Positions 6,033-54,120 of a stretch of DNA of 64,000 bases are shown here, piece after piece (position 1 is the first letter of the stretch; the number at the start of each line of letters is the position of its first letter). The stretch spans positions 384,001 through 448,000 of the forward strand of contig CAWDOD010000011.1 of NCBI GenBank assembly GCA_963803805.1. Reading direction: 5' to 3'. Made by a program: the position numbers and the translations under genes. The notes below the pieces were generated by a model. The model was not told the origin of the DNA. It worked only from the letters and a program-made list of their open reading frames with translations, and searched no databases. Origin of the DNA: an uncultured cyanobacterium (GTDB taxonomy: Bacteria; Cyanobacteriota; Cyanobacteriia; Cyanobacteriales; CAWCAG01).

Positions 6033-6170
6033 AATTTTTAAATTAACTAACGCGAGCTTTTTCCCCTGTGAAGTATTGTAACAATCCTAGTTATCAACGT
6101 TAGTATGAAAAAAACTTTTCCTCTACGGTGATTCCTATAACTTTAGAAATAGATTTTGAACTGAAATTAA

Positions 6171-7970
6171 ATGCTTCTTTCCTTGCAAATCCGTAATTTT
6201 GCTTTGATTGACCAGCTAGAAGTGGATTTGGGAGCTGGTATCAATGTCTTAACTGGTGAAACTGGTGCGGGTAAGTCAATTATTCTCGATGCCATTGATG
6301 TTGTCTTAGGAGGGAGAGTAAATAATCGCTTAATTCGCAGTGGCACTAAAAAAGCCATGGTAGAAGCAACCTTCCAAATAGATAGTACTTTGGAACAATG
6401 GTTACAGGAGCAAGAAATTGATCCCCTAGACGAAGGGAGTCTTATTTGTTGTCGAGAAATTGCTGTTGGTAAAGGTAGCCTGCGCTCGCGCTCTCGCGTT
6501 AATGGTGTTCTGGTTAATCGTGCTTTCATGGAACAATTGCGCCCCCGTCTAGTAGAAATTACTGCCCAAGGGCAAACTGTACAGTTAATGGTTCCAGCTA
6601 TTCAGCGACAACTCCTAGATTATTATGGCGGGGAACCCCTCCTTAAACAGAGACAAAAAGTAGGTAAGGCTTATAAAGTTTATCAAGAAGCACAACAAGC
6701 TCTTGTAAAACGTCGTCAATCGGAGCAAGAACGCTTGCAAAGGCTAGATTGGCTAGAATATCAAACCCAGGAATTAACAGCAGCCAACCTAGATGATGCC
6801 GACGAATTAACCAAATTAGAAATAGAACGAGACAGACTTTCTCATGTAGTTGAATTACAAAACCTTAGTTATAAAACCTACCAACTGCTTTATCAAAATG
6901 ATAGTGATGGCGTAGCGGCGGCAGATCTATTAGGCCAAGGAGAAGGTATTTTAACGGAGATGGCAGAATATGACCGTAGCTTGGAACCCCTTTTAGAAAG
7001 CGTTAAGGGGGCTTTGATGGAAATTGTCGCCGCCGGACAGCAAATTAATGCCTACGGAGATAGTCTCGAAACAGATCCTCAGCAACTAGAGATCTTAGAA
7101 GAAAGGGTTAGCCTCCTCAAACAAATTTGTCGTAAATATGGCCCCAACCTTCCCGAAGTGATCGCCTATTATCAAAAGCTTCAAGAAGAACTAGAAGAAC
7201 TCACTGATGATAGCCAAGCCCTAGAGGTATTAGAACAAGAATACGCTCAATGTCAGGAAAAGTTAACCAAAGACTGCCAAAAATTAACTAAATTACGACA
7301 AAAAGCGGCGGTGCAGTTAGAAAAAAGATTAATCGCTGAACTTAAACCTTTAGCCATGGAAAAAGTACAATTTGAGTGCCGAATCACCCCCACTGAACCG
7401 ACTTCTTCCGGTGGGGATCGCATTGTTTTCTACTTTAGTCCTAATCCTGGTGAAAATGTCCAGCCCCTAGCCTCAACTGCTTCAGGAGGGGAAATGAGCC
7501 GCTTTTTATTGGCCCTAAAAGCTTGTTTTACCAATTCACAAGACAATGGTGCTACTCTCGTTTTTGATGAAATTGATACTGGGGTTTCTGGTAGAGTAGC
7601 TCAAGCGATTGCTGAAAAACTCCATCAATTAAGCAAACATCACCAAATTCTCTGTGTTACCCATCAACCCTTAATTGCAGCCATGGCAGATGTTCACTTC
7701 CGAGTAGACAAAGAAGTGATTGATCCCTTACCTTTAGTGGCAAGAAAAACCAAGAGTAACAAAACCTCCAAAAGTGACTTTGTTGCAGAAATACCAGAGA
7801 TTCGCACTGTGGTTCGCCTTACTAGCTTAAAAGACAGCCTGCGCCGTAAAGAAGAACTAGCTCAATTAGCTGGGGGAAAATCGGCTCAAGACGCTATGGC
7901 TTTTGCTGAGTCCCTACTCTCCAAAGCCGCAGCTCATCGCCAAGAGCATAAATTAGTAATTAGTGATTAA
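6171..7970 (+). CDS. recN: DNA repair protein RecN
   Basis: Walker A TGETGAGKS, ASGGEMSRFLLAL, VFDEIDTGVSG, CVTHQP. Confidence 0.97.
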   Translation: MLLSLQIRNFALIDQLEVDLGAGINVLTGETGAGKSIILDAIDVVLGGRVNNRLIRSGTKKAMVEATFQIDSTLEQWLQEQEIDPLDEGSLICCREIAVGKGSLRSRSRVNGVLVNRAFMEQLRPRLVEITAQGQTVQLMVPAIQRQLLDYYGGEPLLKQRQKVGKAYKVYQEAQQALVKRRQSEQERLQRLDWLEYQTQELTAANLDDADELTKLEIERDRLSHVVELQNLSYKTYQLLYQNDSDGVAAADLLGQGEGILTEMAEYDRSLEPLLESVKGALMEIVAAGQQINAYGDSLETDPQQLEILEERVSLLKQICRKYGPNLPEVIAYYQKLQEELEELTDDSQALEVLEQEYAQCQEKLTKDCQKLTKLRQKAAVQLEKRLIAELKPLAMEKVQFECRITPTEPTSSGGDRIVFYFSPNPGENVQPLASTASGGEMSRFLLALKACFTNSQDNGATLVFDEIDTGVSGRVAQAIAEKLHQLSKHHQILCVTHQPLIAAMADVHFRVDKEVIDPLPLVARKTKSNKTSKSDFVAEIPEIRTVVRLTSLKDSLRRKEELAQLAGGKSAQDAMAFAESLLSKAAAHRQEHKLVISD

Positions 7971-8286
7971 AAATGGGAAAAATGAAGTTAAGGGCAGAAA
8001 AACTAGGTAATAAATTAAGCTCTGGCACAATTGTTTCCCCTTAGCATCTACGAAATTAGCCAGAAAGGACATTGATAGTAACCAAGGCAAACTAATATTA
8101 ATAATACTGTTGCCAAAATACCAAAGTTAAATTAGTGTTCAAAATAAATTCACAAGAGTAAACTAGGGATTAGTTTCTCCATTACTAACCCGTGGAAAGC
8201 TCTTAACTGGATAGTTAATTTCCTTTAAAGTACTCTCAAGCTTACTTAAGTACTCTCAATCCTCACCCAAGTTTTCGTGAAGAGAT

Positions 8287-10890
8287 ATGACTGCTGCATC
8301 TTCTCAACCCTCATCCTTAAAACAACACGACGGTCAAACTATAGAAGCTGAAGTCGTAGGTGAAAATCATAACCATGTTAACCAACCGTCTTCTGGCAGT
8401 GCCTTAGCGACAACAGGAGGTAGCTTTTCCACTTTCCTTGCTCCTTTAGATCAAGGCTCTTTTGGAGACGTTGTTGAAGGCGTAGAAGACAAACTACGGA
8501 TTGTTAATCAAACCCTATCCATGCTGGACAACGTGCTGGATAGTCAGGGTTTTGATGCCATCCTTGATGAAATGTTGCAATCCATCTCCTTGAAGACTGG
8601 AGAATTGTTGGGTGCTGATCGGACTACCATTTATTTATTGGATGACGACGAGGACGAACTAGTTTCTATCGTAGCTAAGGGTGAAGATGGTAAGCCTTTA
8701 GAAATTCGTATTCCCATTGGTATAGGTATTGCTGGAGCAGTAGCGGAGTCGAAAGAAGTTGTCAATATCCCCTACGATTTTTACGACGATTACCGCTCAG
8801 CCTCAGCGAAAAAGTTTGATAAGAAAAATGGCTATCGTACTTATACGATGCTGGTTTTACCCCTACTCGATACCCAGCAAAAACTAGTTGCTGTGGTGCA
8901 GTTAATTAATAAATTACAGCCCAATACAAGTCCTGATGCTCCTTTAGAAGAAAAGGTTAACAAAGAAGGATTTACAGAGGAAGATGTCAAATTATTTAAT
9001 GAATTTGCCACCTCAATTCAACTCATATTAGAATCCTCTCGCTCTTTTTATAAAGCAACCCAAAGACAAAGAGCAGCCAACGCCTTAATAGAAGCAACCA
9101 ACTCCCTAAGTAAGAGTAGCTTAGACTTAGACGCTACCTTAAGGACAGTCATGGATGCGGCTAAAAAGCTGATGAATGCTGACCGCAGCACTCTTTGGTT
9201 AATTGATGAAGACAAAAATGACCTCTGGACAAAGATCCCGATGCCCGATGGCTCTTTAAAAGAAATTAGAGTTTCCATTGGGGTAGGATTTGCGGGGAGG
9301 GTAGGAGAAACCGGAGAAACTCTCATAATTGGTTTTGACCTTTATGACCATCCCGATGCAGAAAACGCCAAGAAAACTGATCCGAAAACAGGATATCGTA
9401 CCTGTAGCCTTCTCTGTATGCCAGTATTTAATGCCGATGGCAAGTTAATCGGTGTTACCCAACTATTAAACAAAAAGCGGCAAGGAGAATATCCTCCCTA
9501 CGATCCCGATACCTGGCCCGAAGCCCCCGAATGTTGGAAAGCGAGCTTCAATGGCAGCGACCAAGAATTTATGAAAGCTTTCAATATTCAAGCCGGGGTA
9601 GCCCTACAAAATGCCAAGCTTTTTGATCAAGTTAAACAGCAAGAACAAATGCAGAGGGATATCTTGCGGAGTTTAACCAATGGAGTAATTTCTACCGATA
9701 AAGCAGGACGTGTCATCGCCGCCAACGAAAGAGCAAAAAATTTATTAGGTTTTCATAACTTAGAAGCCTTAGAAGGAGAAAAGGTTGTTGATTTAATTAA
9801 TATCAAAGAGGGAAAATTTGCCGCTTGGTTTGAGCAAGCCCTCTCTCCTAATGATGAGCGTACCAATCGAGAGCAGTATTACCCTGATCGCACCTTACTC
9901 GCCGACGAAGAAGAACATAGCGTTAACCTCTCCATTAACTCCATCAGCGATGCTAGGGATGCTAGCAACGTTTATGGGGCTTTGGTGGTTATGGAAGATA
10001 TTTCTGATGAAAAGCGTCTCAAGAGTACTATGTACCGTTATATGACCCAGGAATTAGCCGAAGAGTTACTCAAACTAGGGGACGCAAAATTAGGGGGCGA
10101 TCGCAAAGAAGTTACTGTTCTATTTTCCGATATTCGTAGCTACACCAGCTTAACGGAGAAACTCAAAGCTGAAGAAGTTGTCGGTATGCTCAACGGTTAC
10201 TTTGAAAGTATGGTTGAGGCTGTCTTCAAGCATAAAGGAACCTTAGATAAATACATCGGTGACGCGATTATGGCTGTTTTTGGTTCTCCTTTACCCTTAG
10301 AAGATCATGCTTGGAAAGCCGTACAAACTGCTTTGGAAATGCGTGAACGCTTGAGTCTTTTCAACGAAGAGCGGTTAAAAGAAGATAAGGTTCCTATCCG
10401 CATTGGGATTGGTATCAACTCTGGCTCAGTAATTAGTGGTAACATCGGTTCTAGTAAGCGGATGGAGTTCACTGCCATTGGTGATGGAGTAAACTTAAGC
10501 TCCCGCTTAGAAGGTGCTAGTAAGCAATATGGCTGCGATATTATTATTAGCGAAAATACTTATGAACCTTGTAAAGACCAAGTAATTGTCAGGGAGTTGG
10601 ATCGTATTAAAGTTAAAGGAAAGAATTTACCTGTATCTATTTACGAATTACTAGGTAAAAAAGGAGATACCCTTTCCCCCCAACAAGAGCAGATTGTCGA
10701 ACTTTATCACGATGGCAGAAAGCTTTACCTCAGCCGCGACTTTGTTGGTGCAGTAGGTAAGTTTGCCCAAGTTATGGGTATAGATAAAGATAATAAAGCA
10801 GCCAAGCTACATATGGAGCGCTGTCAGCATTTCCTAGCTGAGCCTCCAGAGGGTGATTGGGATGGAGTTTGGACAATGACATCAAAGTGA
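8287..10890 (+). CDS. Class III adenylate cyclase, GAF-GAF-PAS-catalytic-TPR architecture (CyaB type)
   Basis: Two GAF domains with NK...F...D motifs; PAS-like region; FSDIRSYT, DKYIGDAIMA and TAIGDGVNLSSRLEG; C-terminal WDGVW. Confidence 0.93.
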   Translation: MTAASSQPSSLKQHDGQTIEAEVVGENHNHVNQPSSGSALATTGGSFSTFLAPLDQGSFGDVVEGVEDKLRIVNQTLSMLDNVLDSQGFDAILDEMLQSISLKTGELLGADRTTIYLLDDDEDELVSIVAKGEDGKPLEIRIPIGIGIAGAVAESKEVVNIPYDFYDDYRSASAKKFDKKNGYRTYTMLVLPLLDTQQKLVAVVQLINKLQPNTSPDAPLEEKVNKEGFTEEDVKLFNEFATSIQLILESSRSFYKATQRQRAANALIEATNSLSKSSLDLDATLRTVMDAAKKLMNADRSTLWLIDEDKNDLWTKIPMPDGSLKEIRVSIGVGFAGRVGETGETLIIGFDLYDHPDAENAKKTDPKTGYRTCSLLCMPVFNADGKLIGVTQLLNKKRQGEYPPYDPDTWPEAPECWKASFNGSDQEFMKAFNIQAGVALQNAKLFDQVKQQEQMQRDILRSLTNGVISTDKAGRVIAANERAKNLLGFHNLEALEGEKVVDLINIKEGKFAAWFEQALSPNDERTNREQYYPDRTLLADEEEHSVNLSINSISDARDASNVYGALVVMEDISDEKRLKSTMYRYMTQELAEELLKLGDAKLGGDRKEVTVLFSDIRSYTSLTEKLKAEEVVGMLNGYFESMVEAVFKHKGTLDKYIGDAIMAVFGSPLPLEDHAWKAVQTALEMRERLSLFNEERLKEDKVPIRIGIGINSGSVISGNIGSSKRMEFTAIGDGVNLSSRLEGASKQYGCDIIISENTYEPCKDQVIVRELDRIKVKGKNLPVSIYELLGKKGDTLSPQQEQIVELYHDGRKLYLSRDFVGAVGKFAQVMGIDKDNKAAKLHMERCQHFLAEPPEGDWDGVWTMTSK

Positions 10891-21847: not shown

Positions 21848-24800
21848 ATGGCCATCAACCAGAGAATTCCCCTTGCCTCCCTTACCCTACTAGCCTTAAA
21901 CCTTCTTACCTCCACTACCCTAGCCCAATCCATCACCACAACTCCTGATGGCACAGGTACAATTATTCAGCATAACGGCAATACTTATACTATTACAGGT
22001 GGTACACAAGCTGGAGCTAATTTATTCCATTCCTTCGGTGAATTAGGACTTTCATCCCAGGAAATTGCCAACTTTCTCTCCAACCCCAATACCCAAAACA
22101 TTTTTGGCAGAGTTACCGGAGGTAATCCTTCAATTATTCAAGGTTTGTTGCAAGTTACTGGGGGCAATAGTAACTTGTTGTTAATGAATCCTGCTGGTAT
22201 TGTTTTTACCCAAGGGGCAAGTCTTAATGTTCCTGGTAGCTTTACTGCTACTACCGCCGATGCAATTGGCTTTGCCGGAGGCTTTTTTACCGCTACAGGG
22301 GAGGTTAACTATCAAAACCTAACGGGTGCGCCTAATCAATTTGTCTTTGCTGGGGATAACGGTAGTATTATCAATGCTGCCCAACTAGAAGCTAATCAGG
22401 GCAACCTTGCTTTGATCGGTAGCAGTGTTACTAATACTGGAACTTTAAGCACTCCTAACGGCAATATTACCATTACCGCAGTCCCTGACAGTAAGAGTGT
22501 GAGGATTAACCAAGCGGGTATGGTGTTGGGTTTAGAAGTTGCCCCTGCTAATCTTGATAGTGGTATTAAAGGAGTAGATTTACCCCGGTTACTCACAGAT
22601 CCTAGTCTCCAGGATGCTACAGGTATTAGTGTTGATGGTAATGGGGAATTGCGCTTGACTGGTTCCAACATCACTTTAGATGCAGCAGGTAATGTTACTA
22701 TTGCTGGGCAGGTGAAAGGCAATGAAGTTAATCTGGCAGCAGCAGGGGATGTTAATCCGGTGGGTAATCCGGAAACCTTGATTAGTACCAATAACGGGGA
22801 ATACAGCGCCCCTACTGTTACTCGTTTTGCCCAGGATGCAAGTGACCCCAATGCTTACGTTTTCATTGATGCGACTGTTCCTAATTACAGTAAGTTACTG
22901 TTTGGTGGGGAAGCAGGAACAACTACGGTGGTGGTTAATCCTGATGAGAATGGTATTAAGAAGATTACCGAAACCTTAGCCACACCGGGATTGAGTTTAG
23001 TAGATGAGTTGCATATTGTTTCTGAGGGTAGTGAGGGAAATTTTTGGTTGGGGAATGCTTTTGTTAATGGTGATACTATTGGTCAGTATGAAGGTCAAAT
23101 CACCTCTTGGAATCAGGGTTTGAGTGTCAATGCGGATTTGTTGCTTTATGCTTGCTTTGTGGCTTTAGGTACAACTGGTGAGGCTTTGCTTAATACCTTT
23201 GCTGATTATACCGGGGCAGATGTGGCTGGTTCTACTAACCTGACTGGCTTTGGGGGAGATTGGCAGTTAGAGAGGAGTGTAGGGAATATTGAGGCTGATG
23301 CAGCTTTTGAAAGTAATGTTTTGGCTGACTATGGTGATAGTTTGGCGGTATTTACAGCTATTAATGGTGGTGATGCTGGGCTAGGTTCACTGCGGCAGGC
23401 ACTTCTGGATGCTAATGCTGCTGCGGGGGATGATGAGGTTCGCTTTGCCCCTGGGTTGAATAAGGTTACTTTGACATCTGGTCAGTTGTTGATTGATGCA
23501 AGGAATGGAGGTTTTACTATTGATGGGGACTCTGGTGGGGCAAGTAATATAATTGTTGAACGTAGTACAGCAGCAGGAATACCTAATTTTAGTGTTTTCC
23601 AGATTTTGGGAGATGAAGATGTTACCATGGATGCCTTGATAATTCGCAATGGTACTGCTAGTGGCATAGTTGCAAGCAGGGGTAAGCTGACTGTGACAAA
23701 TAGCACAGTTACTAGCAATTCTAATGGTAGAGGGGGCGGCATTAGTAGCGTCGGTGCAGTAACTTTAATTGACAGCACTGTGAGTAACAATATTGGTACT
23801 AGAGGGGGTGGCATTAGCAGTAATAGTGATGGAGTAACCCTCATAAACAGTACAGTTAGTGGTAATGCAGGAACTGGTGGTGGTATTTACAGCAGTGATG
23901 GAGTAATTCTAGATAACAGTACGGTGAGTGGCAACATAGGAGGGACAGGGGCTGGTGGTATTTGGAGTTATAGTTCAGTAACTCTAACCAACAATAGCTC
24001 TGTGACTGGTAATCGTAATGGTGCAATTGGTTTTACAGGTGGCATTCGTACTGGTGGGCTAGGCGGTAGTGGCCCAGTTACTTTGATTGATAGTAGTGTA
24101 AGCGGCAATAACGGTATTGGTATTACTAGTAGTGGGCCGGTTAACCTAACGAACAGTACAGTTAGTAACAATACTTCCCGCGGTAGGAGCGGAGGTATTA
24201 CTAGTAGTGGGCCGGTTAACCTAACGAACAGTACAGTTAGTAACAATACTTCCCGCGGTAGGAGCGGAGGTATTACTAGCAGTAGAATAGTAACTCTTGT
24301 TGACAGTACTGTCAGTGGTAATCAGGGGGGTGAGAGTGGTGCTATTTATAGTTATGGTGGAGTGACTTTAGAGAATAGCACTGTGAATAATAACTTTTCT
24401 ACGGGCGTTGTCCGCAGGGGAAGTATTTGGAGCTATAATGCAGTCATTCTGAACAATAGTACTGTGAATGGCAATATTAGGGGTGGTATTAGTGCTGGTG
24501 CAGTTACTCTGAATAACAGTAGTGTAAGTAATAATTTTGATGAAGGTATCAGCAGTGGTGGTGCAGTTAATGTGACTAATAGTAATGTTAACAATAATCT
24601 TGGCCGTGGTATTAGTAGCAATGGTGAAGTAACCCTAAATAGTAGTAGTGTAAGTAATAATTCTACGAACGCTACAGACGGTGGTGGGATTCGTAGCAAC
24701 GGTACAGTCACGTTGAACAACAGCACAGTGGACGGCAATTCAGTAAGAGGAGGTGGTGGTGGTATTTTCAGCAGGGGTGCTACAGTAACTCTAAACAACA

Positions 24801-26377
24801 GCACTGTGAGTAATAATTCCGCAACAAGTAGCGGCGGTGGTATTAGTAGTGGAGGCGGAGTAACGCTGAACAGTAGTACGGTAAGTGGCAATTCTACAGA
24901 TTTTGGTAGCGGTGGTGGTATTAGTAGTGGCGGTGCAGTTAATTTGACTAACAGCACTGTAAGTGGAAATTTAGCAGGAAATAATGGTGGTGGTGTTGCT
25001 AGTGGAGATGGTGGCACTATTATTAATAGTACTATTACCAACAACACAGCAGACTCTGATAGCAATAACAGAGGTAATGGTGGCGGTATTTATACAAGCT
25101 TGAATAGCACTCTAAACATCAGCAACAGTATCATTGCTGGCAACTTCGATCTTGGGGGTGCTATTAACCCCGACTTTTCCGGCAGAGGTACAATCAACGG
25201 CAATGCTAATAATCTCATCGGCGATCGCACAGGAGCAAATGGTACAATCGGTACAGGTAGCGATAAAACCTTTGCCAATTTAGGCATCACCAATATTAAC
25301 CAAGTCCTTACACCTTTGGGAGATTACGGTGGCCCAACCTTAACCCATGCCCTCGTCCCAGGTAGCCCAGCCCTTGATGCTGGTAACAACGCCAACATTC
25401 CCGGCGGGATAACCACCGATCAACGAGGTGCAACCCGGATCAATAACATCGTTGACATTGGTGCATTTGAATCCCAGGGTTTCACCTTCAACTTAACAGG
25501 TTCTCCCCAAAGCGCCCTTGTTAATACAGCTTTTAGCCAGCCCTTAACTACCCAAGTCTTAGAAAACTTCGCTAACAAACCTATTTCCGGCGTTCCCATC
25601 AGTTTTAATGCCCCGACAACTGGTGCATCAGGCAACTTTGGCAACGGTACAACCGTCCTTACCAACTCCCAAGGTATTGTTGTTAATCCCTTCACTGCTA
25701 ACACTGTTGCTGGAGACTATCAAGTCACTGTGAATGCCAATAGCTTACAGGTAGGCAGTTTTAGTTTAAGCAATATTGGTAATGGCAATTTTCCTACACC
25801 ACAACCTCAGCCTCAACCTCAGCCTCAACCTCAACCATCTTCTATTCCCCAACTACAACCCCAACAACCTCAATCTCAGCAATCTCAGCTTTTTGTGCCA
25901 CCAGAAAGCAACACCCCCCCTGAACCCCAGGAAACTATAACAACTTATGACACAAAAGAAGTACTAGAAACTGCGATCGCCGAAGCTTTCCAAAGCTTAC
26001 TACCTAAAATTGCTGGACGGATGAATGCAGAGGGAGGAACTATTTCTTTTCCCTTAAGGGAGTTAACCGCCAAAATGGACTCTAGAATATCAGTTATAAC
26101 AGCAGAGATTCCCCAAAGCTATCAACAAATTCTACATCATCGCCTAAAACACACTATTAGGAGATATATCGGCAAAGACTATACTGGTTTGGTGGAAGTA
26201 AAGTTAGTCAATGCACCAGAGGGTATAACAGCAATCATAGAAGTGCAACCCTCACCCAAACCAGCCTTTGTCAAAGAAGAGGAAGAGAAAATTTTCTATC
26301 TTTACGAAGATGGGAATCTACGCAAACTTGAACAAGAAGCAACACAAGAATATATTCAGCAACGTTGGACGCAGTAG
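21848..26377 (+). CDS. Two-partner secretion exoprotein (TpsA): filamentous-haemagglutinin N-terminal domain, DUF4347-like domain, beta-helix (PMP-like) repeats, choice-of-anchor Q-like region, Ig-like domain, PQ linker, unassigned C-terminal domain
   Basis: Signal peptide; NLFHSF, RVTGGNPS and MNPAGIVF TPS motifs; FIDATV...LLLYAC...GADVAGS...GGDWQLE; many GGI.S...TL.NSTVS.N repeats; GGPTLTHALVPGSPALDAG...TDQRG...DIGAFE. Confidence 0.9.
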   Translation: MAINQRIPLASLTLLALNLLTSTTLAQSITTTPDGTGTIIQHNGNTYTITGGTQAGANLFHSFGELGLSSQEIANFLSNPNTQNIFGRVTGGNPSIIQGLLQVTGGNSNLLLMNPAGIVFTQGASLNVPGSFTATTADAIGFAGGFFTATGEVNYQNLTGAPNQFVFAGDNGSIINAAQLEANQGNLALIGSSVTNTGTLSTPNGNITITAVPDSKSVRINQAGMVLGLEVAPANLDSGIKGVDLPRLLTDPSLQDATGISVDGNGELRLTGSNITLDAAGNVTIAGQVKGNEVNLAAAGDVNPVGNPETLISTNNGEYSAPTVTRFAQDASDPNAYVFIDATVPNYSKLLFGGEAGTTTVVVNPDENGIKKITETLATPGLSLVDELHIVSEGSEGNFWLGNAFVNGDTIGQYEGQITSWNQGLSVNADLLLYACFVALGTTGEALLNTFADYTGADVAGSTNLTGFGGDWQLERSVGNIEADAAFESNVLADYGDSLAVFTAINGGDAGLGSLRQALLDANAAAGDDEVRFAPGLNKVTLTSGQLLIDARNGGFTIDGDSGGASNIIVERSTAAGIPNFSVFQILGDEDVTMDALIIRNGTASGIVASRGKLTVTNSTVTSNSNGRGGGISSVGAVTLIDSTVSNNIGTRGGGISSNSDGVTLINSTVSGNAGTGGGIYSSDGVILDNSTVSGNIGGTGAGGIWSYSSVTLTNNSSVTGNRNGAIGFTGGIRTGGLGGSGPVTLIDSSVSGNNGIGITSSGPVNLTNSTVSNNTSRGRSGGITSSGPVNLTNSTVSNNTSRGRSGGITSSRIVTLVDSTVSGNQGGESGAIYSYGGVTLENSTVNNNFSTGVVRRGSIWSYNAVILNNSTVNGNIRGGISAGAVTLNNSSVSNNFDEGISSGGAVNVTNSNVNNNLGRGISSNGEVTLNSSSVSNNSTNATDGGGIRSNGTVTLNNSTVDGNSVRGGGGGIFSRGATVTLNNSTVSNNSATSSGGGISSGGGVTLNSSTVSGNSTDFGSGGGISSGGAVNLTNSTVSGNLAGNNGGGVASGDGGTIINSTITNNTADSDSNNRGNGGGIYTSLNSTLNISNSIIAGNFDLGGAINPDFSGRGTINGNANNLIGDRTGANGTIGTGSDKTFANLGITNINQVLTPLGDYGGPTLTHALVPGSPALDAGNNANIPGGITTDQRGATRINNIVDIGAFESQGFTFNLTGSPQSALVNTAFSQPLTTQVLENFANKPISGVPISFNAPTTGASGNFGNGTTVLTNSQGIVVNPFTANTVAGDYQVTVNANSLQVGSFSLSNIGNGNFPTPQPQPQPQPQPQPSSIPQLQPQQPQSQQSQLFVPPESNTPPEPQETITTYDTKEVLETAIAEAFQSLLPKIAGRMNAEGGTISFPLRELTAKMDSRISVITAEIPQSYQQILHHRLKHTIRRYIGKDYTGLVEVKLVNAPEGITAIIEVQPSPKPAFVKEEEEKIFYLYEDGNLRKLEQEATQEYIQQRWTQ
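24119..24279 (+). repeat. Perfect 75-bp tandem duplication inside tpsA
   Basis: 24119-24193 equals 24194-24268 (GITSSGPVNLTNSTVSNNTSRGRSG x2), plus the first 11 nt of a third copy. Confidence 0.95.
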
Positions 26378-30314: not shown

Positions 30315-31763
30315 CTAACCTAAGAACTCTATAGCTAATTTGATTACTTCTACCACTCCTGTAGCAATAAGCCCATTAGCTGCTGCATCTGCTACATATT
30401 GTCCCCACTTGACTAGTTTGTTTTTGAACGTAGGATTTTTATTCGCTTGGGTGGCTAAATCGCTAGCTACTTTATTCTTAGCTCCTTGGCTGCTGAAGCC
30501 TTGAGTTTCTAGTTGAGCTAAGAGTTTTTGAATGTTTGCAGCTACTTCTGCAAGGGTTTCTTTTTCGTTTAAGTTCTCAATTATTTGTACCGTGCCTTGT
30601 ATGGTTCCACCCTTCTGGACACCAGCTACAAAGTTTCCTCTTTGATTGATACTATCTCCTGCCATAGCATTATTCTCTACATTAATTGGCCTACTAGCTA
30701 GTAGCTTAGCAATTTCCATCATGTCTGCGCTTTGGCGGTGATAAATGTTTATCTCTCTATCTTTAGCTTGTAACTGATTGCGATATTTCTCTTCTACTGC
30801 CTCTAACTGTAGTTGGTACTTTTGCCAGAAGAATTTTTCCATTTCACCTTTATCAAAATCATCTGGAACAGCAACCTTAACAACAAAAGCACCGTTATTC
30901 TTGCTTTCTATAGCTTGTATTCTGAGATTAATTTCCCCTGCTTCTACTTGTAGGGCTTGTAGTGAAGGGAGAAAGGCTTGCCAGTCAATACCCTTACTGA
31001 AGATGAGGTCAAGGGTTTCATTGGCTTGTTCAATAAGGCTGATGAATTCCCCAGGAGCAAAGTTTTTGTTAAGGTCATGGGGGCGACGCTCAGAGAAAAC
31101 CCATTCTGAGTCTTGATATTCTTCTTTTAGATAAATGTACTCGCAAATAACATCCTTAAATTGGGTTTCACTATTGATATGCCAGTCTTCAATACAAGCA
31201 CCTGTTAGATTAGCATTTTTGAAATTTGTTTTGAGCGCTTGAGTAGCAATGAGTTTAGTACATCCGAGGTTTGCATTATCGAGGTTAGCACTATCGAGTT
31301 TTGTATCTCTGAAGTGGGCATTTTTGAGATTAGCATTTTTGAGATTAGCACTATTGAGGTTAGCACTATTGAGGTAGGCAAATCTAAGGTCTGCATTTCT
31401 GAAGTCAGCCCCTCTAAGGTTGGCAAGATCCAGGTGGGCGCTTTTGAGATTAGCATCTCTGAGGTCTGCGTTTTTAAGCTTAGCACCCACAAGATAAGAA
31501 CCCATGAGATTAGCGTATTTGAGGTCAGTCGCTCCGAGGTCTGCATTTCTAAGGTCAGAGCTACTGAGGTTAGCATCTCTAAGGTTCGCACCTCTGAGGT
31601 TAGCGCTATTGAGGTAGGCGAATCTAAGGTCTGCATTTCTGAGGTTTGATCTACTAAGGTTAGTACCTCTGAGGTCTATCTTAACTCTAGGATTCTCTGC
31701 TCTCCATTTATTCCACTCCTCTACACTCCTCTTAAGCAAACCTAACTGCTCTTGGTCTACCAT
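30315..31763 (-). CDS. Pentapeptide repeat protein with C-terminal helical extension
   Basis: WNKWR N-cap, a long run of A(D/N)Lxx repeats, LTGACIEDW, and a C-terminal TLAEVAANIQKLLAQL helical domain. Confidence 0.9.
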   Translation of the reverse strand: MVDQEQLGLLKRSVEEWNKWRAENPRVKIDLRGTNLSRSNLRNADLRFAYLNSANLRGANLRDANLSSSDLRNADLGATDLKYANLMGSYLVGAKLKNADLRDANLKSAHLDLANLRGADFRNADLRFAYLNSANLNSANLKNANLKNAHFRDTKLDSANLDNANLGCTKLIATQALKTNFKNANLTGACIEDWHINSETQFKDVICEYIYLKEEYQDSEWVFSERRPHDLNKNFAPGEFISLIEQANETLDLIFSKGIDWQAFLPSLQALQVEAGEINLRIQAIESKNNGAFVVKVAVPDDFDKGEMEKFFWQKYQLQLEAVEEKYRNQLQAKDREINIYHRQSADMMEIAKLLASRPINVENNAMAGDSINQRGNFVAGVQKGGTIQGTVQIIENLNEKETLAEVAANIQKLLAQLETQGFSSQGAKNKVASDLATQANKNPTFKNKLVKWGQYVADAAANGLIATGVVEVIKLAIEFLG

Positions 31764-46158: not shown

Positions 46159-46611
46159 CTAATGGCTAGTTGTTAGTTGTTGTTGATAAACTGAGATGTG
46201 AACGCGGGCATTTTCGTGGGCAGAATTTTGCACCCAAAATTTTGTAACTGGAGTTTCTAAATCACGATTGATTTTTAGGGGTTTGCCTGCGGTGCAAGTA
46301 TAAGTTTTGAGGTTATCGCCACAGGGTAAAGCAATGTCTCCTGGTTCAATTTTAACGGTTATTGCTGTTGCCGGAGGATCTAGTTTAATAGTTTGCTTAG
46401 CTGTCTCTGGCAGGATTAAGAGATTATAGTTTTTCAGAGATTGTTTTTTTAATGAATTATCTTCACTATTAGGTAAGACAACTTCTTGAGCAAGAGATTC
46501 TTTTGCCGGGAGTATTTCTGAATCTGGAGGTAAGGTAGTTTCTGCTTGTACTGGTGTAGCTATAGTTAGTAGGAAGAAAATAATGCTGAGAATAATAATT
46601 TTCAATTTCAT
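46159..46611 (-). CDS. Exported hypothetical protein
   Basis: Signal peptide (…TPVQA/ET); 150 aa; two Cys. Confidence 0.6.
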   Translation of the reverse strand: MKLKIIILSIIFFLLTIATPVQAETTLPPDSEILPAKESLAQEVVLPNSEDNSLKKQSLKNYNLLILPETAKQTIKLDPPATAITVKIEPGDIALPCGDNLKTYTCTAGKPLKINRDLETPVTKFWVQNSAHENARVHISVYQQQLTTSH

Positions 46612-46679
46612 CAGAGTTTTTGTGAATTTTTAATTGACTCTTAGAGAGAACCGAGAAAAGACTTATCCAAAAGCGATAA

Positions 46680-46740
46680 GCTAATGGCTAGTTGGTAGTT
46701 GGTAGTTGGTAGTTGCTAGTTGGTAGTTGCTAGTTGCTAA
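46680..46740. repeat. Heptamer short tandem repeat array (STRR-like), representative example
   Basis: gctaatg gctagtt ggtagtt x3 gctagtt ggtagtt gctagtt; similar arrays at about 601, 16540, 20337, 26378, 26790, 46051, 50075, 51870, 54070, 54235, 56153 and 63410. Confidence 0.85.
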
Positions 46741-46809
46741 AATCTTATACTTTGTGAGTATATTTTATTTGTTGGAGTTCTCTTACCAGAAGGCTTAGGC
46801 GAATAATTC

Positions 46810-47397
46810 TTAATTAACGCTGTTCCTTGCTTCCGATTGACGTGGTTGACTTAATTGTGGTTGTTCTTGTTGGAAACTGTAGCCTAGCCAGATGAAACCT
46901 CCACCGAAAACACCAATTACCCCAATTAAGATAACTGTGAGTAATTTTACTTGAGAGCGAAGTAAGTCTACTTCTTGGCTACCCCTTTGAATTTGGGATT
47001 GAGGAGGAGTTTCTTCAATACCTAGTTTTTTACGAGCAACTTCTTCAACAATTTTCTCTTCTTTTTGGTTAAAAGTAACTTGAGAATGGAGCCAGTCGGC
47101 AATTAATTTTGGGCAGTTTTTTTTAAACCAACGTATGGCGATTATTTTAAATAATGGCTTTGATATTTTCGCTATTGGTTTCATGGTTTTATTAGCCAGA
47201 CGCGAATGAAACTTTTGGTCAATGAGATTAATTGAACCTATATCATAAAGACAATCTAAGATTAGCTTAATATTAACTTCTTCTCTTTCAGTTAAATGTT
47301 GAAGGAGGACAAGAACTTGATACATAAGTTCTTTTTCTTTTTCAGCTTTTTCTGAAAGCGGCTCGATTTCAGCTAGATTTTCTGGGGTGGGGTTCAT
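46810..47397 (-). CDS. Hypothetical protein with C-terminal TM helix
   Basis: 195-aa ORF; VNIKLILDCLYDIGSINL core; C-terminal hydrophobic helix. Confidence 0.65.
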   Translation of the reverse strand: MNPTPENLAEIEPLSEKAEKEKELMYQVLVLLQHLTEREEVNIKLILDCLYDIGSINLIDQKFHSRLANKTMKPIAKISKPLFKIIAIRWFKKNCPKLIADWLHSQVTFNQKEEKIVEEVARKKLGIEETPPQSQIQRGSQEVDLLRSQVKLLTVILIGVIGVFGGGFIWLGYSFQQEQPQLSQPRQSEARNSVN

Positions 47398-47650
47398 CTT
47401 CGTCTTAACTCTTCTAACAGGCTAGGGAGGTAATAAGATCCTATATAAGTTTTGAAAAGATTGGGGACTTAAGGTGCATCAGGGTATCAAGTATTTATAT
47501 TCTTTGCTGGAATAAGAAAACGGAGATAATTTTTGGGATGTTGATATCCATTTTGAAGAAAGAAGTATTTTTGACTACACTTAAGCCAAAATTGATAATT
47601 CAATAATTGTATTTACCGCCAAGTACTCCATTGGACATAAATAAAATTAC

Positions 47651-47678
47651 TTGACAGATATGAAATTACTGCTAATAT
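47651..47678 (+). promoter_or_regulatory. Putative sigma70 promoter for the leader, repeat array and 217-aa gene
   Basis: TTGACA (47651-47656), 16 nt, TAATAT (47673-47678), with an extended -10 TG. Confidence 0.55.
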
Positions 47679-47825
47679 ACCCTTTGTATCAGTAAAAGGC
47701 AGGGTGCAGTTTCTCTGGCATATTAATTAGACTCTGTTAAAGCAGGGTCTTTATTGTTTATTCACGTAAGTAGTCCTACCCTCGCTGAATCTGGCTGGTT
47801 AGATGATGCTTCTCTTTAGCTTCAA

Positions 47826-48056
47826 CTTCATTCAAGAAAAACAATGCACTATTCAGAAATCTCTCAGCCTCGTCTAGGAAACTTAGAGTACTACTCAGGA
47901 AACTCTTGGCCCCGCCCAAGAAACTTAGAGTACTACTCAGAAAACTCTCAGCCCCGCCCAGGAAACTTAGAGTACCATTCAGGAAACTCTCGGCCTCGTC
48001 CAGAAAAAATAGAGTACTATTCAGGAATCTTTCGGCCTCGCCCAGGGAACTTTATG
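47826..48056 (+). repeat. Degenerate tandem array: 10-11 x 21-nt units alternating A/B to give 5 x 42 nt
   Basis: A ~ tactaytcaggaaactctcrg, B ~ ccycgcccaggaaacttagag; both share a CAGGAAACT-like core; exact 21-nt periodicity without indels over 47847-48056, plus a degenerate B unit at 47826-47846. Confidence 0.9.
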
Positions 48057-48059
48057 TAA
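47844..48059 (+). CDS. Possible 71-aa repeat peptide spanning the array (may be non-coding)
   Basis: ORF is M plus five 14-aa units (Y/H)(Y/H)SxxxxPRxxxxx; no clear RBS; the open frame could just follow from the 21-nt period. Confidence 0.3.
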   Translation: MHYSEISQPRLGNLEYYSGNSWPRPRNLEYYSENSQPRPGNLEYHSGNSRPRPEKIEYYSGIFRPRPGNFM

Positions 48060-48121
48060 CAAGTATTCTTTAGCTAAAGCATTAAGCTAAGATAAAAATA
48101 ACTATCTTATCTCTAAAGTTA

Positions 48122-48775
48122 ATGGCTATTGATCAAAGCTTAGGCAGTTTTTTTAATAAAGCTAGACTTGTTATTGATGGTTCCTTAAACCATAGTGAAA
48201 TTCAAAGTTATCTCAGTCAATACGGTTATACTCTTGAACGCCTCCAGGAAGGGAAAACCCTTTATGAAGCTGCCTTTGCTGCTAACGAAAAACAAAAGAA
48301 AGAATTTGGGGAACAAATTGAAGCTACAGCCGAGTTTAAAAAGACTTGGGAACAGTCCCAAAAGAACTATATGCGTTATGTAAAAATTGCCCGCATCGCC
48401 TTTAAAGATAAACCAGGAGTATTTACAGAATTAGCCCTTAATGGTAAACGAAAACGCAGTTTTTCGGGTTGGTTAATGCAGGCAAGCCAGTTTTATAGCA
48501 ATTTGCTAGGGAATCAGCAACGCCTCGATGCAATGGCTAAATATGGCATTACTTCAGAGATGTTAACCGCAGGGCAAACGGAATTAGACACAGTGCAAGC
48601 GGCTAACATCTCCCAACAAAAAGAAAAGGGCGATGCCCAAGCAGCAAGGGAAGTGAGGGATAAAGCTATTGATGAACTTGATGATTGGTTAAGTGATTTG
48701 ATTGCAATTAGCCGCATTGCCTTAGAAGAAAGCCCCCAGTTGATTGAGAGTTTGGGGATTGTGGAACCTTCTTAA
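48122..48775 (+). CDS. Uncharacterised 217-aa, apparently all-alpha-helical protein
   Basis: Intact ORF; amphipathic helical pattern; two similar halves (YGYTLERLQEG / YGITSEMLTAG; KEFGEQIEAT / KEKGDAQAAR; KIARIAF / AISRIAL; ELAL / ESLGI). Confidence 0.8.
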   Translation: MAIDQSLGSFFNKARLVIDGSLNHSEIQSYLSQYGYTLERLQEGKTLYEAAFAANEKQKKEFGEQIEATAEFKKTWEQSQKNYMRYVKIARIAFKDKPGVFTELALNGKRKRSFSGWLMQASQFYSNLLGNQQRLDAMAKYGITSEMLTAGQTELDTVQAANISQQKEKGDAQAAREVRDKAIDELDDWLSDLIAISRIALEESPQLIESLGIVEPS

Positions 48776-48849
48776 TGATAATTTAAGCAGGGAAGGCATT
48801 TAGATTAGTTGTTGGAAGTGAGGGGGTGATGGGGAGAGGGTTTAATAAT

Positions 48850-48987
48850 TAAGCTAAGACGCATTTAAACTGGTATTGATCAAATCCACCTATTTTCCTC
48901 AACATCTTCACTATTACCTATTACCTATTCTCTTACAAACCAATTAAAAGCATAACAGCTTATATGGTTTAAATGTACATCAGCTTA
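48850..48987. mobile_element. Small inverted-repeat-bounded (MITE-like) element with internal heptamer array
   Basis: Left end taagctaagacgcatttaaac vs reverse complement of 48967-48987 taagctgatgtacatttaaac (16/21); a second right-end-like copy at 48939-48962; internal CTATTAC repeats. Confidence 0.5.
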
Positions 48988-49000
48988 GCAATAACAACGA

Positions 49001-50074
49001 ATGAACAATAACCAATCCCCTAAGCAAGCCGACGACTCCTTTCGCAGCGTTCATACCAAAAACTTCAGCAACATTCTCCAACAATTAAACATCTCCCTGA
49101 TCGTCTCCACCTACCAAGCGGGCAAAGTCATTCTCTTGCGGGAGGATGAAGGAAAACTCAACACCCACTTTCGCCTCTTCCGCAAACCCATGGGTATGGC
49201 GGCTAACAACACTCGTTTAGCCATTGGTACAGCTTACCAGGTAGTGGAACTCTACAATATGCCTGCTGTGGCTCAAAAACTTGAACCTGTGGGTAAACAC
49301 GACGCTTGTTACATCCCCCGCAACGTCCATATCACCGGAGACATTGACATCCACGAAATGGCTTGGGGCAAAGAGGAACTTTGGGTTGTTAACACCCGCT
49401 TCTCTTGCCTTTGCACCATCAACACAGAATATAGCTTTATCCCCCGTTGGCGACCTCCTTTTATCACTGGTTTGGGTATGGAGGATCGTTGTCACCTTAA
49501 CGGTTTAGGCTTGGTAGATGAACGTCCTAAATACGTCACTGCTTTAGGGCAAACCAACAACCCCCAAGGTTGGCGGGAAAACAAAGCTAACGGAGGCATC
49601 TTAATGGATGTAGGAAGTAACAAAATTATTTGTCAAGGTCTTTCTATGCCCCATTCTCCCCGTTGGTATGATAATCAACTTTGGGTTTTAGAATCAGGCA
49701 ACGGTACTCTAGCAACGGTAGACTTGCAAACAGGTAAATGGACAACAGTCGCAACTTTACCAGGTTTCACTCGCGGTTTAGCCTTTTATGGCCCCCTAGC
49801 CTTCATCGGTTTGTCTCAAGTTAGGGAAACGGCGGTATTTAGCGGCATTCCCCTCACAGAGAAGCCTACAGAACGCAATTGCGGGGTTTGGGTGGTGAAT
49901 ATTCAAACCGGAGAAACGGTCGCTTTCTTGCGCTTTGAAGGGGCAGTACAGGAAATCTTTGCTGTGGGGGTAATGCAGAACATCCGCTTCCCGGAAATCC
50001 TCGAAGGAGATGAAGAACGTCTTTCTCATTCCTATGCTTTACCAGAAGAGGCTTTGCGGGATGTTGAAGTTTAG
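49001..50074 (+). CDS. TIGR03032 (DUF4915) family protein
   Basis: STYQAGK, TGDIDIHEM, VNTRFSCL, EDRCHLNGL, GLSMPHSPRW, PGFTRGL, FIGLSQVRE. Confidence 0.92.
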   Translation: MNNNQSPKQADDSFRSVHTKNFSNILQQLNISLIVSTYQAGKVILLREDEGKLNTHFRLFRKPMGMAANNTRLAIGTAYQVVELYNMPAVAQKLEPVGKHDACYIPRNVHITGDIDIHEMAWGKEELWVVNTRFSCLCTINTEYSFIPRWRPPFITGLGMEDRCHLNGLGLVDERPKYVTALGQTNNPQGWRENKANGGILMDVGSNKIICQGLSMPHSPRWYDNQLWVLESGNGTLATVDLQTGKWTTVATLPGFTRGLAFYGPLAFIGLSQVRETAVFSGIPLTEKPTERNCGVWVVNIQTGETVAFLRFEGAVQEIFAVGVMQNIRFPEILEGDEERLSHSYALPEEALRDVEV

Positions 50075-54066: not shown

Positions 54067-54120
54067 TTTGCTAATTGCTAATTGCTAATGGCTAGTTGCT
54101 AGTTGCTAATTGCTAATAGT

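Follow-up and report, generated by a model that had tools for sequence, protein, structure and literature searches.

A 21-nucleotide repeat array and a PQLLE-family gene form a conserved two-part cassette on bacterial chromosomes

Introduction

Iterons are direct repeats of about two helical turns that lie beside the gene of the Rep initiator, a protein that binds them and regulates its own expression, and the repeats of parC on plasmid pSK41 are about 20 bp long. In the partition loci ParR-parC, omega-parS of pSM19035 and TubR-tubC, as PMC5016525 describes them, the repeats double as the operator of a promoter and are bound cooperatively, which leads to a protein superstructure. Type III toxin-antitoxin loci carry repeats of 31-62 nt in 1.9-5.6 copies, to go by Table 2 of PMC3401426. 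Here, we analyse a locus in a 64-kb stretch of DNA from an uncultured cyanobacterium (contig CAWDOD010000011.1; the whole stretch is called the window below), in which a tandem array of 21-nt units is followed by the gene of a 217-aa helical protein. The array and this gene, which belongs to the NCBIfam family PQLLE, are two parts of one conserved, self-contained chromosomal cassette, and upstream arrays of the 21-base type recur with PQLLE genes in at least five bacterial phyla. Together, the repeats and the PQLLE protein form a two-part cassette that has not been described before.

The array and its gene in the window

The cassette consists of the following features.

47826..48056, + strand: tandem array, the cis element of the cassette; ten 21-nt units that alternate between types A and B to give five 42-nt repeats, plus a degenerate unit at 47826; core YCAGGAAACT
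48057..48121, + strand: spacer of 65 nt, with the 12-bp palindrome ctttagctaaag at 48068-48079 and the 7-bp stem taagata/tatctta at 48088-48094 / 48103-48109
48122..48775, + strand: PQLLE-family gene (NF052641) of 217 aa, all helical, with two homologous halves; starts 65 nt past the array

Tandem Repeats Finder (TRF) places the array at 47848-48052 with a period of 42, 4.9 copies, 81% matches, 0% indels and a score of 249; a row of period 84 scores 284, and the period-21 row (47876-47988), with 61% matches, is far weaker than that of period 42. Autocorrelation over the 500 nt upstream of the gene gives an identity of 0.87 at lag 42, 0.55 at lag 21 and 0.34 at lag 20. Set in register, the units are TACTAYTCAGGAAACTCTCGG-like (type A) or CCYCGYCCAGGAAACTTAGAG-like (type B) with a CAGGAAACT-like core visible, and the unit matrix of the whole family, described below, finds seven matches in the array. 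An earlier reading of this DNA, made from the sequence alone, had proposed just such an indel-free A/B array of 42-nt and 21-nt repeats, and TRF, autocorrelation and register alignment all confirm it; the palindrome and the stem that it had noted in the spacer are both present in the sequence.

With up to one mismatch, YCAGGAAACT occurs 19 times in the 64-kb window, eight times inside the array and 11 times outside it, and since 11.07 +/- 3.34 matches are expected by chance over the whole window, the outside matches are at chance level; there are no dispersed copies of the motif elsewhere in the 64 kb above that expectation.

Recurrence at homologous loci

Relatives of the gene were sought in one genome per species, the query being the ten closest sequences; 97 were found, and the best 80 loci were kept (given L numbers where they have to be told apart). 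An array was called where TRF reported a period of 20, 21, 41, 42, 63 or 84 within 450 nt 5' of the gene, as it did at 49 of the 71 loci whose upstream flank is 300 nt or longer and at four of the nine where it is shorter. A method more tolerant of degeneracy, which takes the best lag of identity in a 105-nt window, returned 21, 42 or 63, or else 20, 41 or 61, in 63 of 74 upstream regions. Outside the upstream zone, in about 678 kb of flank, the same period filter flagged 17 TRF rows in ten loci, several of them with long periods (102-129 nt). When the limit is set at 600 nt, arrays are present at 54 of the 80 loci, namely 25/32 in Cyanobacteria, 18/26 in Bacteroidota, 3/8 in Chloroflexota, 2/3 in Calditrichota and 2/3 in Ignavibacteriota, the total including single bins of other phyla. 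The protein tree, which is a quick tree only, has arrays in both of its main branches; members without an array are scattered, apart from one cluster in Chloroflexota. Among the hosts that can be cultured are Reichenbachiella agariperforans DSM 26134 (L059), Ekhidna lutea DSM 19307 (L064) and Cyanothece sp. BG0011 (L033). A survey of homologue flanks had been proposed by the sequence-only reading as the way to check a coupled system, and it finds arrays of the period-21 type recurring directly upstream in distant phyla by either method.

Two groups of related loci have members in unrelated flanks, and in both the conserved sequence begins with the upstream edge of the array and extends over the spacer and the gene; in the quick tree L039 (Bacteroidota) and L046 (Ignavibacteriota) are sisters with similar A/B units. 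The cassette, about 0.9-1 kb in all, therefore moves as a unit. The recurring arrays, together with a conservation that begins at the array's edge in both groups, bear out the central inference of the earlier reading, that array and gene belong together.

TRF coordinates match in just two pairs, L016/L018 and L061/L062, and within each the arrays are identical in length; as far as visible, this is not a hypervariable contingency locus. The rows L014 and L015 are one contig binned twice. The contigs of L024, L025 and L027 begin inside the array: PQLLE arrays break short-read assemblies, and they create spurious open reading frames (ORFs) on both strands.

A few loci have their repeats elsewhere. 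In the Chloroflexota loci L074 (6700-6901) and L080 (6751-6922), which have no upstream array, a 21-nt array of CCCACAACCTCCGTTTAACAC in 9.6 copies with 93% matches follows directly 3' of the PQLLE stop codon. An orphan 21-nt array of AGCAATCCATCCCAACCACCG in 6.4 copies lies at 8336-8469 of L011, 1.7 kb 3' of the PQLLE gene and between Uma2-like and DUF559-like ORFs, with no PQLLE gene after it; its unit is of the type found in the PQLLE arrays of its clade (the type of a paralogue). In L043, a deltaproteobacterial bin, two PQLLE paralogues (6001-6651 and 9161-9832) flank a 740-aa SIR2-like/TPR gene, and no periodic array was found in the upstream flank of the first copy, the flank that was searched.

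Anatomy of the repeat unit

Of 53 arrays, 44 have a best TRF period that is exactly divisible by 21, and the other nine, all outside Cyanobacteria, have periods of 20, 41, 82 or 104 (20-20.8 per unit). A position matrix iterated from a seven-unit seed converged on G/A-A-A-A-T-C-A-T-T-c-c-n-n-A-C-C-a-n-n-n-a, with its A-rich run most conserved (AA at 0.88 and 0.92), and its matches follow one another at 21 nt in 200 cases, at 42 nt in 37 and at 20 nt in 15. The density of matrix matches is 9.8 per kb on the sense strand upstream of the genes, 2.9 on the antisense strand there and 2.0 elsewhere in the loci; only the latter two densities are independent, because the upstream sense strand had served to train the matrix.

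Unit sequences differ strongly between loci and even between paralogues of one genome (L020/L022/L029; L024/L025/L027), and still they share a GAAATCATTCC-like, weakly dyad-symmetric core. Its left half reads G/A-A/C-A-A-T/C and its right half, on the other strand, G-G-A-A/G-T/C. Some arrays contain perfect palindromes, such as GGAAT-N-ATTCC in L002 and GGAACCGTTCC in L024. The extended motif ATC(A/G)TTCCCGACC is common to cyanobacterial and Bacteroidota arrays, and the 8-mer TTCCCGAC has 22 copies in the 42 kb of sense-strand sequence upstream of the genes (seven loci, two phyla) versus 12 copies on both strands of the remaining 678 kb.

In one cyanobacterial clade, L033 (5680-5855) and L035 (1472-1627) have arrays that fit the family unit better when read in antisense (five matches versus two to three in sense) and a sense strand that is rich in T; the array therefore seems to be inverted relative to the gene. 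The best-conserved non-coding piece in cyanobacterial loci is a spacer block, (T/C)GGGCA(A/C)nCT, which lies 45-60 nt 5' of the start codon after a conserved last unit, GCATCAATTCYGCTT, and resembles a half-site of the core. The AT-rich spacer of the window is without it.

The PQLLE protein

The protein had been left unassigned by the sequence-only reading, and it can now be placed, over its full length, in NCBIfam NF052641, 'PQLLE family protein' (E 6.2e-74, 248.2 bits against a cut-off of 80), its residues 6-213 aligning with profile positions 4-211 of 211 (208 positions). The family owes its name, which carries no function, to a C-terminal motif that in the window protein reads PQLIE. A profile built from 70 members finds 3643 representative clusters (50% identity) at E<=1e-3 and 1324 at E<=1e-30, nearly all of about 215 aa.

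AlphaFold2, given an alignment of 70 sequences, predicts an all-helical protein with high confidence (pLDDT 94.7, pTM 0.80), in which each half consists of two short helices followed by one helix of 56 residues (38-93; 145-200). The halves, 4-106 and 112-214, align with a BLOSUM62 score of 85, and tblastn searches return cross-matches between them. A helical protein with two similar halves is what had been claimed from the sequence alone, and the structure prediction and fold search that had been recommended with that claim gave this confident model and no relative in the Protein Data Bank (PDB) at E<=0.001. The window protein has an isoelectric point (pI) of 5.28, and eleven basic positions are conserved in the family: R40, R85, K88, R91, K95, R110, K111, K167, K169, R179 and R198.

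Searches beyond the family returned little. For the window protein Pfam gives nothing significant (best DUF413, E 0.093), the PDB searched by sequence profile no significant relative (best E 0.22), PADLOC no match and PHROGs nothing below E 0.017; of five family members tried, four have no PADLOC match and the fifth a weak one (E 0.0095), and the best PHROGs value among the five is E 0.017. The ESM Atlas, searched with the window protein, returned unnamed clusters only. The profile, fold, PADLOC and PHROGs searches thus agree with the earlier observation that no ToxN-like, Cas, Rep or ParR motif can be recognised. DUF6261, the named family closest to the protein in the Atlas (0.87 and 0.82), came up there as a possible distant relative and was rejected, as hhalign gave a probability of 0.35% against one DUF6261 neighbour; at L055 a DUF6261 gene (4830-5519, - strand) adjoins the PQLLE gene in divergent orientation. 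In the literature, a full-text search for 'PQLLE' found no paper about the family, judging by titles and abstracts, and, judging by the listings, none of the papers on 21-bp or 21-nt tandem repeats appears to concern it, while those on 21-bp repeats as operators are general operator papers only.

Promoters, terminators and RNA structure

Three further features of the window bear on how the cassette is expressed.

47651..47678, + strand: sigma-70-like promoter match TTGACA-16-(TG)TAATAT, 10/12 positions, TG before the -10 element
47729..47762, + strand: terminator-like hairpin of nine pairs (47729-47750) with a U-rich tail after it, placed past the promoter and before the array
47844..48059, + strand: ORF of 71 aa over the array, with a 14-aa repeat NLEYYSGNSRPRPG; a mechanical ORF, judged not to be a gene

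The promoter, already pointed out in the sequence-only reading as TTGACA-16-TAATAT, is there as a sequence match; given that two promoter-like sites are observed in 46600-49200 versus 5.2 +/- 2.3 in shuffles, it is a consensus match and not statistical evidence. About 50 nt past it begins the hairpin, which is more stable than all 200 shuffles over 47720-47765 (z -3.37) and has a z of -3.12 over 47685-47765, whereas the whole stretch 47680-48125 has no more RNA structure than shuffles (z +0.29). One of the leader hairpins described earlier is accordingly real (z -3.4), and the leader and array taken as a whole are unstructured. A promoter followed by a significant hairpin with a U-rich tail looks like a candidate small RNA or attenuator of about 75 nt whose end lies before the array; what starts from the promoter at 47651 is probably this separate, short, terminated transcript and not that of the cassette. 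It follows that the layout first proposed, with promoter, leader, array and gene on one transcript, is doubtful, because the terminator-like hairpin sits between the promoter and the array. The candidate RNA (47651-47762) has no match in Rfam, which over 46500-49500 returns two matches only, both outside the array and far under their gathering scores (E 0.2 and 0.21). As RNA, the window's spacer (48057-48121) is no more stable than its shuffled versions, 54 of 200 of which are as good (z -0.51; z +0.04 by a second measure).

The family behaves in the same way. Array RNA folds no better than shuffles (median z -0.21; 4/54 below -2), nor does spacer RNA (median z -0.24; 5/53 below -2); the fold z values give no signal of pseudoknot-like structure in the arrays, and a strict intrinsic terminator, that is, a hairpin with a T-run, is found between array and gene at none of 55 loci. 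In the paralogues L024, L027 and L025, sigma-70-like promoters begin 3, 3 and 43 nt, respectively, past the end of the array.

Genomic setting

No partner gene is conserved among the 70 downstream and 56 upstream neighbours of PQLLE genes; the commonest downstream family, Uma2, accounts for seven of the 70. Toxin-antitoxin, restriction-modification, NLR-like or other defence genes make up 23 of the 70 downstream and 16 of the 56 upstream ORFs, counts that come without a background rate, and defence-type genes are common in these phyla. Downstream examples are PIN, NTP_transf_2, Uma2, DUF559, type I and Eco57I/MmeI restriction enzymes, NACHT, SIR2-TPR, CHAT and IS200; upstream examples are GmrSD, CHAT-NACHT, Cas6, ThsA-Macro, KAP NTPase, reverse transcriptase and patatin. 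By tblastn, no PQLLE homologue was found in 72,556 plasmid or 50,697 phage records. Beside the PQLLE gene of the window there are no genes of defence or toxin-antitoxin type, and the gene that follows it downstream is not conserved next to PQLLE genes at other loci:

49001-50074, + strand: gene of the TIGR03032/DUF4915 family (E 1e-130), a conserved family without known function

Other repeats were met in passing. Near the PQLLE gene of L059 lies a period-66 array (8172-8869; 10.6 copies, 67% matches) with a repeat-spacer-like pattern, and L050 has perfect repeats of 21, 23 and 45 nt downstream (8020-8688) and a Cas6 gene upstream. The window itself contains the tandem heptamers TAGTTGG (46687-46739, 6.9 copies) and TTGCTAA (54068-54117, 7.1 copies), which look like the short heptamers that filamentous cyanobacteria carry as tandem repeats. 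Further tandem repeats at 24119-24283, 24828-24971 and 31265-31677 (75 nt in 2.2 copies at 98%; 78 nt in 1.8 copies; 15/30/45 nt) are probably coding, because their periods are all multiples of three.

What the array may do

We tentatively read the array as a set of phased double-stranded DNA sites that the cassette's own protein, the predicted binder, would occupy as an operator. Each 20-21-bp unit would span two helical turns, so that all units would lie on the same face of the helix, and each would hold a roughly dyad-symmetric core of the kind G(A/G/C)AA(T/C)-N-(A/G)TT(C/G)C. Along such a double-stranded array the rod-shaped, internally duplicated (pseudo-twofold) PQLLE protein would bind the cores cooperatively, and with the array placed at or just 5' of the gene's promoter this binding would set the protein's own expression. 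The PQLLE protein is the candidate binder because it is inherited together with the array, because the units are specific to paralogues and because no other gene is conserved at these loci. The surroundings, rich in defence and toxin-antitoxin genes, suggest a tightly self-controlled protein of a conflict system.

Between RNA repeats and phased DNA sites the evidence leans towards DNA. Unit sequences diverge and yet keep their period of 20-21 bp; the core has a dyad-like form, and the protein contains an internal duplication; L033 and L035 apparently have an inverted array; sigma-70-like promoters start after the array in L024, L025 and L027; there is no RNA structure in the arrays or spacers and no terminator; and in the window the hairpin sits between the only promoter-like sites and the array.

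A number of results weigh against the operator reading. In 11 of 74 upstream regions the best lag is not of the 21 family, and in L074 and L080 the array is 3' of the gene and not 5'. The dyad symmetry is weak: about position 6 the unit is 0.433 complementary versus 0.368 +/- 0.028 under column permutation (p 0.021), covariation across the core dyad beyond column composition is absent (z -2.1 to +1.2), and the window's own units keep the left half-site only, without the right. On the sense strand of the gene C exceeds G in 45 of 55 arrays and A exceeds T in 40, a skew that a DNA site does not need. Promoter-like matches are about evenly spread (1.14 per kb upstream of the arrays, 1.23 within and 1.37 downstream), the sole two Bacteroidetes-type TAnnTTTG motifs are upstream of the array, and so is the promoter match of the window. 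The protein family is acidic (median pI 5.13, net charge -5.5) and has no recognisable DNA-binding fold: neither the PDB (best E 0.36) nor the viral predicted structures of BFVD (best E 0.13) contain a relative by fold at E<=0.001. We also considered the conserved YG(Y/I)T turn, which recalls a helix-turn-helix (HTH), and this failed, the best Foldseek match in the PDB to a model of the N-terminal 64 aa (pLDDT 89.9) having an E of 8; an Atlas search with residues 1-62 found no HTH family, and a profile search of PDB sequences nothing relevant.

Some of these points are what one would expect if the cassette worked at the level of RNA, with an unstructured repeat RNA, made of 21-nt units with an RAAAU-like core, that would bind or neutralise the PQLLE protein or be processed by it. 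In function this would resemble a type III toxin-antitoxin or abortive-infection module whose effector is a new helical protein. The sense-strand skew and the promoter-like sites upstream of the array in the window, L052 and L071 speak for such a cassette, as do an array that adjoins the gene and is inherited with it, several paralogues with different repeats per genome, and flanks often made up of toxin-antitoxin, restriction-modification or defence genes, to be read as counts without a background rate; one known toxIN locus listed in PMC3401426 has its repeats 3' of the toxin gene, as L074 and L080 do. Against it stand the 55 loci without a strict terminator before the gene, the median fold z values close to zero in arrays and spacers, a unit of 20-21 nt versus the 31-62 nt tabulated in PMC3401426 for known type III loci, an acidic, all-helical protein unlike ToxN or Kid, with one weak PADLOC match among the five family members tried, the seeming inversion in L033 and L035, the terminator-like hairpin that precedes the window's array and the good promoters that follow the array in L024, L025 and L027. 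On balance we regard an RNA-level cassette as unlikely. Its boldest version, a new protein/repeat-RNA class in which an unstructured RNA of 21-nt units templates, neutralises or guides a rod-shaped helical effector, seems to us more doubtful again; it would add to the type III-like toxin-antitoxin or defence modules a fourth kind, without structural relation to the others and widespread in Cyanobacteria, Bacteroidota and Chloroflexota.

The array might instead act in cis only, as a promoter-upstream or leader region (phased A-tracts that bend DNA, or the sites of another host factor) that the PQLLE protein does not touch and that travels with the gene since it is needed for its expression. An A-rich run every two helical turns, a protein that is acidic and lacks a known nucleic-acid-binding fold, and a core motif found elsewhere in the window at chance level would all fit. 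We nevertheless think this improbable: paralogues of one genome differ in their units, which neither a shared host factor nor curvature would require, many cores (GGAAT, GCAAC) are not A-tracts, and about 16 unit positions, for example those of the extended motif, are conserved across phyla between proteins about 45% identical, which points to sequence-specific recognition moving with the cassette. That the array is itself a gene, its 71-aa ORF encoding a tandem-repeat peptide such as a multi-core precursor, can hardly be credited, even though the ORF has its ATG at the first unit and its stop right past the last and 19 of 31 arrays of the family have no stop in that register frame. All three sense frames hold stops in seven of the 31 and all six frames in four, so that no register frame is open in all; nine of the 53 array periods (20, 41, 82 and 104 nt) are not multiples of three; differences between the window's repeats fall 6/10/9 on codon positions 1/2/3 and are synonymous in seven cases and nonsynonymous in 17, as in other frames; conservation in the matrix is among the highest at positions 3 and 9, where that frame has third codon positions; and the peptide has no Pfam or NCBIfam match. 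The coding array was rejected on the closed frames, the non-triplet periods and the absence of a third-position excess.

How the cassette compares with known systems

For a family as large as PQLLE, with no known function, fold relative or literature, a cis element that has stayed with the gene across phyla offers a concrete, testable handle, since a defined nucleic-acid ligand could be made from its sequence. If the operator reading holds, the protein would represent a previously unseen nucleic-acid-binding fold that tiles along sites two helical turns apart; if the repeats act as RNA, the cassette would be a new kind of RNA-protein cassette in defence-rich regions of the genome.

With the type III loci ToxIN, CptIN and TenpIN, to the extent that PMC3401426 describes them, the cassette shares its two-part build, a nucleotide array beside a single protein gene, as well as a mostly chromosomal setting, often with several cognate copies per genome and often among defence genes, and repeats that are occasionally 3' of the gene. 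It differs from them in its units of 20-21 nt in 5-12 copies, although a 42-nt super-period would fit the range in the table of that paper, in spacers without a terminator and arrays without a signal of RNA structure, and in a protein that is an acidic, all-helical rod with no ToxN- or Kid-like fold and, in the window, no PADLOC match. The type III layout that the sequence-only reading had seen here is consequently not reproduced, on the grounds of terminators, RNA structure and unit length alike.

Like the partition arrays of PMC5016525, as far as they are described there, PQLLE arrays are tandem direct repeats directly 5' of a gene at the same locus, which in the partition systems is the gene of the repeat-binding protein. 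Unlike those systems, PQLLE genes have no ParM, ParA or TubZ among their 70 downstream and 56 upstream neighbours, the family and fold searches show the protein to be neither a ribbon-helix-helix nor a winged helix, and tblastn finds no homologue in plasmid or phage records. With iterons the arrays have in common that they are direct repeats of about two helical turns beside a gene; however, the PQLLE protein has no Rep-like domain by Pfam or NCBIfam, and the setting is chromosomal and not plasmid. From CRISPR arrays they differ in that the units abut, with no spacers between them.

The cassette belongs to no known type III, ParR/parC or iteron family, and its sole membership is that of its protein in the function-less NCBIfam family PQLLE. 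Although it fails defining features of each, it works most like the centromere/operator arrays of plasmid partition or the type III toxin-antitoxin loci.

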